The notes under the pieces: generated by a model
Database searches by the model: none
Told to the model about the DNA's origin: nothing
What the model saw: only the letters and a program-made list of their open reading frames with translations
Program-made: the position numbers and the translations under genes
Shown: one piece after another, positions 31,269 through 56,155 of the stretch
Layout: each line of letters opens with the position of its first letter
Numbering within the stretch: position 1 is the first letter of the stretch
Assembly (NCBI RefSeq): GCF_050290165.1
Contig: NZ_JBNKHD010000003.1
Span: 85,752-149,751 of the forward strand
DNA length: 64,000 bases
DNA from: Tenacibaculum sp.
GTDB taxonomy: Bacteria; Bacteroidota; Bacteroidia; Flavobacteriales; Flavobacteriaceae
Direction of reading: 5' to 3'

Positions 31269-31300
31269 AAAACCTTAAAAGAAGATACTTTTAAGGTTTT
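31269..31300. terminator. Bidirectional intrinsic terminator
   Basis: AAAACCTTAAAAG-AAGATA-CTTTTAAGGTTTT between tyrS and the convergent small ORF. Confidence 0.8.
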
Positions 31301-31340: not shown

Positions 31341-31538
31341 TTAGGAAACAGCTTTAAAATCAAACGTTAAAGGACATCGCTTACAGTTTATCCCTTTCTT
31401 CTGATATTTATTACAACATTTACTTTTTGGTTTGATACAGTTAGAAGTACATACCGAATTGCAAGCTGTTAAATTTTGCGCTTTTTGTATAGGAACCACA
31501 GAGGTAACCTTCTTAGTACTAGTATAAAAAACAATCAT
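31341..31538 (-). CDS. Small Cys-rich protein (7 Cys; CC-x9-C-x2-CP), candidate metal/[2Fe-2S]-binding
   Basis: 65 aa with C26, C30, C34, C41, C42, C52 and C55. It has its own consensus promoter upstream and a terminator downstream. Confidence 0.65.
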   Translation of the reverse strand: MIVFYTSTKKVTSVVPIQKAQNLTACNSVCTSNCIKPKSKCCNKYQKKGINCKRCPLTFDFKAVS

Positions 31539-31555: not shown

Positions 31556-31563
31556 CAAATATA
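31556..31563 (-). promoter_or_regulatory. -7 promoter element (TATATTTG) for the small Cys-rich ORF
   Basis: CAAATATA on + strand, 17 nt upstream of ATG. Confidence 0.65.
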
Positions 31564-31568
31564 AATCT

Positions 31569-31593
31569 TTTATTTAGAATAAATTAAAATAAA
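31569..31593. promoter_or_regulatory. Putative Fur box
   Basis: TTTATTTAGAAT-A-AATTAAAATAAA. The core matches ATTTAGAATTATTCTAAAT (Fur box recalled from Riemerella work) at 15/19 and overlaps the expected -33 region. Confidence 0.55.
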
Positions 31594-55723: not shown

Positions 55724-55761
55724 AATTAAAAGGACTTGCAATTGCAAGTCCTTTTAATTTT
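55722..55761. terminator. Bidirectional terminator (perfect 40-bp palindrome overlapping both stop codons)
   Basis: AAAATTAAAAGGACTTGCAA/TTGCAAGTCCTTTTAATTTT. Confidence 0.85.
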
Positions 55762-56104
55762 TACAAATATCGTTTAAATAGTTGTTCATTCTTAATTGAA
55801 ATAAGGTACCTCTCAACAAATCATCTATTTGTCCCAATTCGACTAATGATACTGCCAAACTAATTTTGTCAGATGGGGTTTGTAGCAAAATAGATTTACA
55901 GTGCTTTCCCTTGATACACGTATCACAGTTTTTTTGTTGTCTTGAATCCATTACTTTTTCTAAGAACTCTTCAATTTCTCGTTCTTTTAAATGAAATCCA
56001 GTGTCTCTAAATATGAGTTGAATTAGGTTAGCCTTGTTTTCTTTCCATTGAAAAGAAATACCTATTTTATTGTCGTATATCTTTGTTATACTTTCCATAA
56101 TCAT
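55754..56104 (-). CDS. Small hypothetical protein with CxxC-x5-C motif and C-terminal Cys
   Basis: 116 aa with C60, C63, C69 and C114; own promoter and Fur-box-like site. Confidence 0.7.
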   Translation of the reverse strand: MIMESITKIYDNKIGISFQWKENKANLIQLIFRDTGFHLKEREIEEFLEKVMDSRQQKNCDTCIKGKHCKSILLQTPSDKISLAVSLVELGQIDDLLRGTLFQLRMNNYLNDICKN

Positions 56105-56118
56105 AGTTAATTATGAAA

Positions 56119-56126
56119 CAAATATA
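56119..56126 (-). promoter_or_regulatory. -7 promoter element (TATATTTG)
   Basis: CAAATATA on + strand, 14 nt upstream of ATG. Confidence 0.65.
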
Positions 56127-56130
56127 AAAG

Positions 56131-56155
56131 TTTATTTGGAATTATTCTAAATAAA
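56131..56155. promoter_or_regulatory. Putative Fur box (12-1-12 palindrome, one mismatch)
   Basis: TTTATTTGGAAT-T-ATTCTAAATAAA. The core ATTTGGAATTATTCTAAAT is 18/19 to the recalled Riemerella Fur box. Confidence 0.7.

Follow-up and report, generated by a model that had tools for sequence, protein, structure and literature searches.

What is encoded by a reading frame for only 65 amino acids, and what its product may do for the cell, is the question raised by positions 31341..31538 of the window, that is, of the whole stretch of 64,000 nucleotides of Tenacibaculum sp. DNA analysed here. A preliminary description saw here a cysteine-rich small protein with its own promoter and terminator, divergent from a copper operon, and likened it to the siderophore reductase FhuF, to Bfd and to metallothioneins. 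The reading frame, the cysteine motifs, the promoter and the terminator are all found where they had been placed, and the features of the locus are as follows.

31341..31538, minus strand: coding sequence of the 65-aa lysine-rich cysteine microprotein (ORF confirmed; pI 9.7, seven cysteines)
31437..31463, minus strand: N-proximal C-x3-C-x3-C, residues 26-34, kept in the genus and not family-wide
31371..31418, minus strand: invariant core CCNKYQKKGINCKRCP, residues 41-56, CC-x9-C-x2-CP, a putative ligand loop for a metal or Fe-S cluster
31556..31563, minus strand: -7 element TATATTTG of the Bacteroidota TAnnTTTG type, 17 nt upstream of the ATG
31572..31590, no strand assigned: predicted Fur box ATTTAGAATAAATTAAAAT, with an extended 23-mer at 31570-31592, covering the -33 region
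31269..31300, no strand assigned: bidirectional intrinsic terminator hairpin of 13 bp with a U-run (terminator scan, both strands)

The product, starting at an ATG, is MIVFYTSTKKVTSVVPIQKAQNLTACNSVCTSNCIKPKSKCCNKYQKKGINCKRCPLTFDFKAVS, and its start is unambiguous since the frame opens just one codon 5' of this ATG. Our analysis shows that the ORF is a real, conserved coding gene. An open and uninterrupted homolog is present in 19 of 24 Tenacibaculum genomes (six-frame search, E <= 5e-12), and among the 31 core codons compared, 9, 10 and 27 are variable at the first, second and third position, respectively. Pairwise codon differences among the orthologs of the genus amount to 442 synonymous versus 247 non-synonymous. 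Both the third-position variation and the synonymous excess indicate a translated gene under purifying selection. The products in the genus have a common N-terminus MIVFY and a variable linker, followed by C-x3-C-x3-C-[IL]xPKxKCCNKY[QK]KKGINCKRCP; the C-x3-C-x3-C is nearly invariant in two of our alignments (A1 and A4), and CC, C and C-P with the flanking lysines are invariant in these two as well as in the family-wide alignment A2. Thus the conservation of the cysteine pattern on which the preliminary description had made its proposal depend is there, the core being kept in the 19 genomes of the genus and in other genera. In a large protein collection, 97 homologs are found, from Tenacibaculum and Polaribacter, and each named copy is a 'hypothetical protein'. 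By exact look-up, the protein of the window is absent from a collection of 15 billion sequences, as are 13 of 18 copies. This absence, together with the many short ORFs expected in AT-rich genomes, is what speaks for the idea that the ORF is spurious, or that a non-coding element is open by chance. We regard such a reading as hardly credible, since stop-free frames are present in dozens of genera, the variation falls mainly on third positions with more synonymous than non-synonymous changes, residues are invariant between subfamilies having little DNA identity, and an Rfam scan of the region returns nothing above noise.

The microprotein is cytoplasmic and strongly basic, with a four-cysteine loop embedded in lysines, and cysteines make up 7 of the 65 residues (11%) in the window. 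The loose pattern CC-x9/10-C-x2-C proves nothing by itself, because the six-frame translation of the genome contains 13 instances of it, mainly in junk ORFs; the specific pattern CC..[YF].{6,7}C..CP has a single occurrence there, which is this ORF. A secreted peptide was considered and rejected, as a signal peptide is absent and the one variant having a transmembrane helix puts its lysine-rich part inside the cell. A RiPP precursor was rejected as well, as no maturase lies nearby and the gene contexts vary. At the DNA level, the codons of GINCKRCP (31371-31394, minus strand) are identical, third positions included, in five species (GGCATCAACTGTAAGCGATGCC; orthologs L002, L004, L006, L007 and L008), and they form a 6-bp inverted repeat GGCATC...GATGCC which is lost in the window's own copy.

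Does the protein belong to a known family? Neither the ORF nor eight diverse variants of its family have a relevant match in Pfam and NCBIfam, and two profiles searched against PDB sequences have none. When 1.84 billion representative proteins were searched exhaustively with a profile, 15 matches resulted, all in the same small family except for one spurious repeat protein. Two AlphaFold runs gave low-confidence models (pLDDT 54 and 65), Foldseek found no structural match in the PDB, and our literature search found no paper on this microprotein gene. FhuF binds an unusual [2Fe-2S] cluster by the motif C-C-x10-C-x2-C, a single loop providing the four ligands (bioRxiv 10.1101/2023.07.04.547673). 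Membership in the FhuF_C family is not supported: the profile PF11575 (gathering score 20.5 bits) does not match the ORF in hmmscan to E 10, nor in a six-frame search of its own genome, and across 25 genomes carrying the gene it matches one copy at noise level (11.3 bits, E 3.2). Alignment by hhalign of the broad family profile A2 with E. coli FhuF gives a P value of 0.013, only the cysteine loop of 20-21 residues being aligned; with a 15-sequence FhuF alignment the value is 0.0063 with a probability of 5.9%, which is weak and again confined to the cysteine loop. The FhuF-like motif proposed earlier stands in part, CC-x2-Y...C-x2-CP being present while the spacing in the window is x9, not the x10 of FhuF.

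The likenesses and differences can be set side by side. With FhuF_C (structure 7QP5) the family shares CC-x2-Y...C-x2-C, and the exact C-C-x10-C-x2-C in most microprotein genera. In both, the loop is located at the extreme C-terminus, most family members ending 2-3 residues past the last cysteine (E. coli FhuF ends in RRTCCQRYRLPDVQQCGDCTLK, a typical family member in KKKCCKKYKKKGKSNCKRCPKL); in both, basic residues flank the CC, and the regulon is Fur-controlled, by prediction for the microprotein. On the other side, true FhuF matches all carry PF06276 together with PF11575, whereas the microprotein is a stand-alone product of 45-65 aa with no other domain and without the siderophore-reductase domain of FhuF, and its intervening residues are lysine-rich rather than RLPDVQQ-like. 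Judged from these sequence comparisons, the resemblance to FhuF is a mechanistic lead and not family membership.

We then present an overall view of the family, based on the profile A2, which was built from diverse members. It matches in 83 of 302 Flavobacteriaceae genera (E <= 0.01) and in 39 of 199 genera of class Bacteroidia (E <= 0.001). Only CC, C and C-P plus flanking lysines are invariant in it, so that the family core is CC-x8-10-C-x2-CP, with x10 in most other genera and x8-9 in a few. The N-proximal cysteines range from none to four, and the upstream C-x3-C-x3-C pointed out in the preliminary description varies, or is missing altogether, outside the genus and in other subfamilies; it is thus not a family feature. 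Typical members have 45-50 aa and end in ...KKKKCCKKYKKKGK[ST]NCKRCPK[LI], while a second subfamily reads (M/V)GKKKK...VKSKCCKKYKKGEKKRCKKCPCFDLLKKVA.

The gene neighbourhood in the other genera is telling. In a first family-wide set, a ferritin gene of about 170 aa lies immediately upstream in 22 of 28 loci, always on the same strand (22/22) and with an intergenic gap of 43-174 nt; in a second set, from other genera, 38 of 49 loci have the microprotein gene as the next one after ferritin, in the same orientation. Most of these gaps contain a terminator hairpin followed by a -7 promoter of the TAnnTTTG type, which means that the two genes are adjacent but separately controlled. Some loci outside this arrangement are worth recording. 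A variant IIVFYSEKSKD...CCEKYKKGKRCKRCPCFDL is found in four genomes of two genera (loci L101, L102, L083 and L084), and at L101:2167-3625 and L102:385-2068 it lies directly 3' of an FNR and a ferredoxin gene, on the same strand with a gap of about 55 nt; the FNR is a ferredoxin-NADP reductase of the thioredoxin-reductase type and the ferredoxin an adrenodoxin-type [2Fe-2S] protein. At L083 and L084, a 255-aa ORF separates the ferredoxin from the microprotein gene. No Fur box is found at these four loci. In addition, four unrelated genera of non-Flavobacteriaceae Bacteroidia (L104, L107, L108 and L110) have a different conserved palindrome, AATACC-N8-GGTATT, some 60-90 nt before the gene; it could be an operator for a further regulator or act as the terminator of the preceding gene.

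The distance from the -7 element to the ATG is about 15-22 nt in the orthologs of the genus, near-constant whatever the neighbouring genes are, and in nearly all contexts the microprotein gene comes with an AT-rich palindrome of 23 nt, TTATTTAGAAT-N-ATTCTAAATAA. In ferritin-linked genera the palindrome is placed 3' of the -7 box; in Tenacibaculum it is just upstream of the -7 box, in opposite orientation, and in the window 8 nt separate the box from the -7 element that follows it on the minus strand (6 nt when measured from the extended 23-mer). The 19-nt core of this palindrome, as derived here, is the Fur box predicted for Riemerella anatipestifer, ATTTAGAATTATTCTAAAT, where purified Fur shifted box-containing promoter fragments in EMSA (PMC5609570). 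The window's copy has 3 mismatches to it over 18 positions. We searched the upstream regions with the published Riemerella consensus at up to 4 mismatches over 18 positions, and the test is not circular because the consensus is a published one. The upstream regions with such a site number 11 of 12 for Tenacibaculum, 36 of 49 for the family and 5 of 11 for further families of the class, against 2 of 146 control windows. When the whole genome was scanned with a PWM, 9 sites reached 22 bits or more, versus none in three second-order Markov simulated genomes, and the top-scoring site in the genome is the box at 31572-31590.

The strong boxes of the genome are flanked by three TonB receptors, two imelysins, a DUF4856 protein and a siderophore-type PLP decarboxylase, and further by nqrA, an ACIII-type cytochrome c and homogentisate dioxygenase. 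The genes marked by the Fur-type box are an iron regulon. Those outside the window include C4:27065 (nqrA), C4:58527 (the ACIII-type cytochrome c) and C3:51932/52000 (TonB receptor / homogentisate dioxygenase), which hints at a direct Fur action on iron-consuming functions here, namely operons of iron-rich respiratory complexes and an iron-dependent dioxygenase. As the genome has two Fur-family genes, we infer from the content of the regulon that the box belongs to Fur proper. The link to iron made in the preliminary description has thus gained a concrete basis in the predicted Fur box of the gene. Since this box overlaps the promoter, the gene should be repressed in iron plenty and made in iron starvation.

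The window itself shows another neighbourhood. The microprotein gene has tyrS as its convergent neighbour and a copper-type TonB receptor operon as its divergent one, and in 6 of 12 Tenacibaculum loci it has tyrS on one side and a small ORF with the copper-type receptor on the other. Ferritin adjacency is seen in 0 of 12 loci of the genus, and the ferritin gene of this genome (contig C15) has no such microprotein ORF after it. In none of the loci of other genera is the copper operon adjacent, the neighbour there being ferritin or another gene. The position beside the copper operon, to which attention had been drawn at the outset, is therefore a peculiarity of part of one genus. At two loci of the genus (L008:1712-2290, minus strand, and L010:564-1440, plus strand), the gene is about 60 nt downstream of a pair of thioredoxin and TPMT-like methyltransferase genes on the same strand, and both copies retain their own Fur box and -7 element. 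In the window, 41 nt separate the stop codon from the terminator hairpin, which the gene shares with the convergent tyrS; the RNA fold of the minus strand has a dG of -18.4 kcal/mol and a z of -4.4. A leader or attenuator of tyrS was rejected, the two genes being convergent, and so was a part in the copper operon, as the gene points away from it, starts from a promoter of its own and adjoins it only in part of one genus. The microprotein gene is an independent transcription unit and not a member of the copper operon. Directly after ferritin, behind the ferritin terminator and with its own Fur-controlled promoter, is where the gene stood ancestrally and where it is still mostly found; in Tenacibaculum it has relocated to a place beside tyrS and the copper-type receptor operon, carrying its promoter along. 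The locus in the window is a case where a Fur-controlled promoter was retained after the departure from ferritin.

The same neighbourhood could be taken to favour a metallothionein-like role independent of ferritin, in which the protein would buffer Fe(II), Zn or Cu through its thiolates or serve these metals as a chaperone, and the seven cysteines and lysine-rich composition of the window's protein would agree with it, as in metallothioneins. Metallothioneins, on the other hand, have a high cysteine density, most of the cysteines being conserved in C-x-C, C-C or C-x-x-C clusters; the microprotein has just 11% of cysteine, only four cysteines are invariant family-wide and some members have exactly four, which makes the chelator idea of the preliminary description a weak one. 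Moreover, the gene carries a Fur box and not the site of a copper or zinc regulator, and the copper-operon adjacency is limited to the loci counted above. With this regulation, the four-cysteine core and the variable context, we hold a metal buffer to be improbable.

What, then, would a Fur-controlled protein encoded after ferritin do? We know of no assigned protein partner for the exit of iron in vivo from heme-free bacterial ferritin, and the only well-characterised release partner known to us is Bfd, which serves the heme-containing bacterioferritin. The position of the gene after ferritin and its own Fur promoter make acting on ferritin when iron is short the likeliest role. The chances seem about even that the microprotein is a predicted Fur-repressed partner of ferritin which binds a metal or an Fe-S cluster, a functional analog of Bfd, the precedent for iron release from bacterioferritin (PMC7760384). 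The analogy lies in a small size (about 50-70 aa), four cysteines, a gene beside an iron-storage gene, a predicted Fur repression with expression at low iron, and a proposed reductive iron release (PMC7760384). It does not extend to the sequence: there is no similarity, the microprotein is extremely lysine-rich, and PF04324 (BFD-like) has no match to the ORF, none in its own genome (six-frame search) and none in most relatives. The cysteines of Bfd form two separated pairs, unlike the CC-x9/10-C-x2-C here; the putative partner is a heme-free ferritin instead of bacterioferritin; and the gene of the window is not beside ferritin. Hence the Bfd-like, iron-mobilising idea of the preliminary description is to be kept as an analogy of function, for which ferritin as the immediate upstream neighbour in most other genera and the absence of a canonical Bfd from the genome both speak, and not as a kinship.

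In the mechanism that we infer, the lysine-rich surface of the microprotein would dock on the acidic shell of ferritin, the pI values of the two being 9.7 and 4.8. The four-cysteine loop would carry a redox-active centre, for which a FhuF-type single-loop [2Fe-2S] cluster is the most plausible candidate and a single metal ion the next; this centre would either pass electrons to the ferric core or take iron from it, a task parallel to that of Bfd for heme-containing bacterioferritin. The ferritin synteny, the Fur box, the absence of Bfd and the opposite pI values speak for a partner of ferritin, and the genes following a pair of ferredoxin-NADP reductase and [2Fe-2S] ferredoxin in two genera speak for redox chemistry. 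Several points stand against: in its own genus the gene is never beside ferritin (the 0 of 12 loci above), so extreme a lysine content would suit the binding of nucleic acids just as well, and the AlphaFold models are of low confidence. The mechanism of Bfd is also not directly transferable, because a non-heme ferritin has no heme to relay electrons. As for binding of an Fe-S cluster, the empty results in Pfam, NCBIfam and the PDB, the noise-level FhuF_C match and the spacing of x9 weigh against it. A more specific form of the proposal, in which the family would be free-standing single-loop [2Fe-2S] microferredoxins of the FhuF type, with 45-65 residues, fed by an FNR/ferredoxin chain and serving the heme-free ferritin Ftn of Bacteroidia as the long-sought physiological partner for the reduction and release of its iron, is put forward as a tentative one, and is more doubtful than not.

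The main rival to a ferritin partner is a Fur-regulated basic protein binding RNA or DNA, in which the four cysteines would form a zinc knuckle and the lysine tracts bind nucleic acid, helping, as an iron-sparing response to starvation, to stop the production of ferritin or of further proteins rich in iron. The FbpA/B/C proteins of Bacillus subtilis are very small, basic and Fur-regulated proteins of the iron-starvation response, and going by their descriptions the microprotein resembles them in size, basic character and predicted Fur regulation. A pI of 9.7-10.2, the K-runs on either side of the cysteines and the Fur box of the gene suit such a protein, the Fur boxes preceding nqrA and the ACIII-type cytochrome c make an iron-sparing circuit plausible, and a regulator encoded beside its target ferritin would explain the synteny. 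To our knowledge, however, Fbp proteins have neither a conserved four-cysteine motif nor a link to ferritin, and the microprotein family, again by description, is set apart from them in both respects. CC-x10-C-x2-C is no known zinc-knuckle spacing, whereas in FhuF it has been proven to bind [2Fe-2S]; the family searches show no resemblance to nucleic-acid-binding proteins, and the FNR and ferredoxin genes next to the variant of two genera suggest a redox function. We consider this nucleic-acid-binding, Fbp-type iron-sparing factor unlikely, and a metallothionein-like buffer or a role in the copper operon is less likely still.

With a Fur-box microprotein tied to the ferritin gene in many Flavobacteriaceae genera, the release of iron from ferritin becomes experimentally addressable. 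The gene is a marker of the iron-starvation regulon, in a genus that includes fish pathogens for which iron acquisition matters, and the family, mostly unannotated, is an example of the functional content hidden in ORFs of fewer than 70 aa. If the cluster binding is true, its members would be among the smallest ferredoxin-like proteins known.

Besides the microprotein gene, the window contains a further candidate for the regulon. A near-perfect Fur box, ATTTGGAATTATTCTAAAT, with 1 mismatch lies at 56134-56152, just upstream of a TATATTTG element at 56120-56127, and behind it is an ORF of 116 aa (55754-56104, minus strand) without Pfam match, which contains C-x2-C-x6-C (CDTCIKGKHC). Its promoter architecture is the same as that of the microprotein gene, which suggests another member of the iron regulon.
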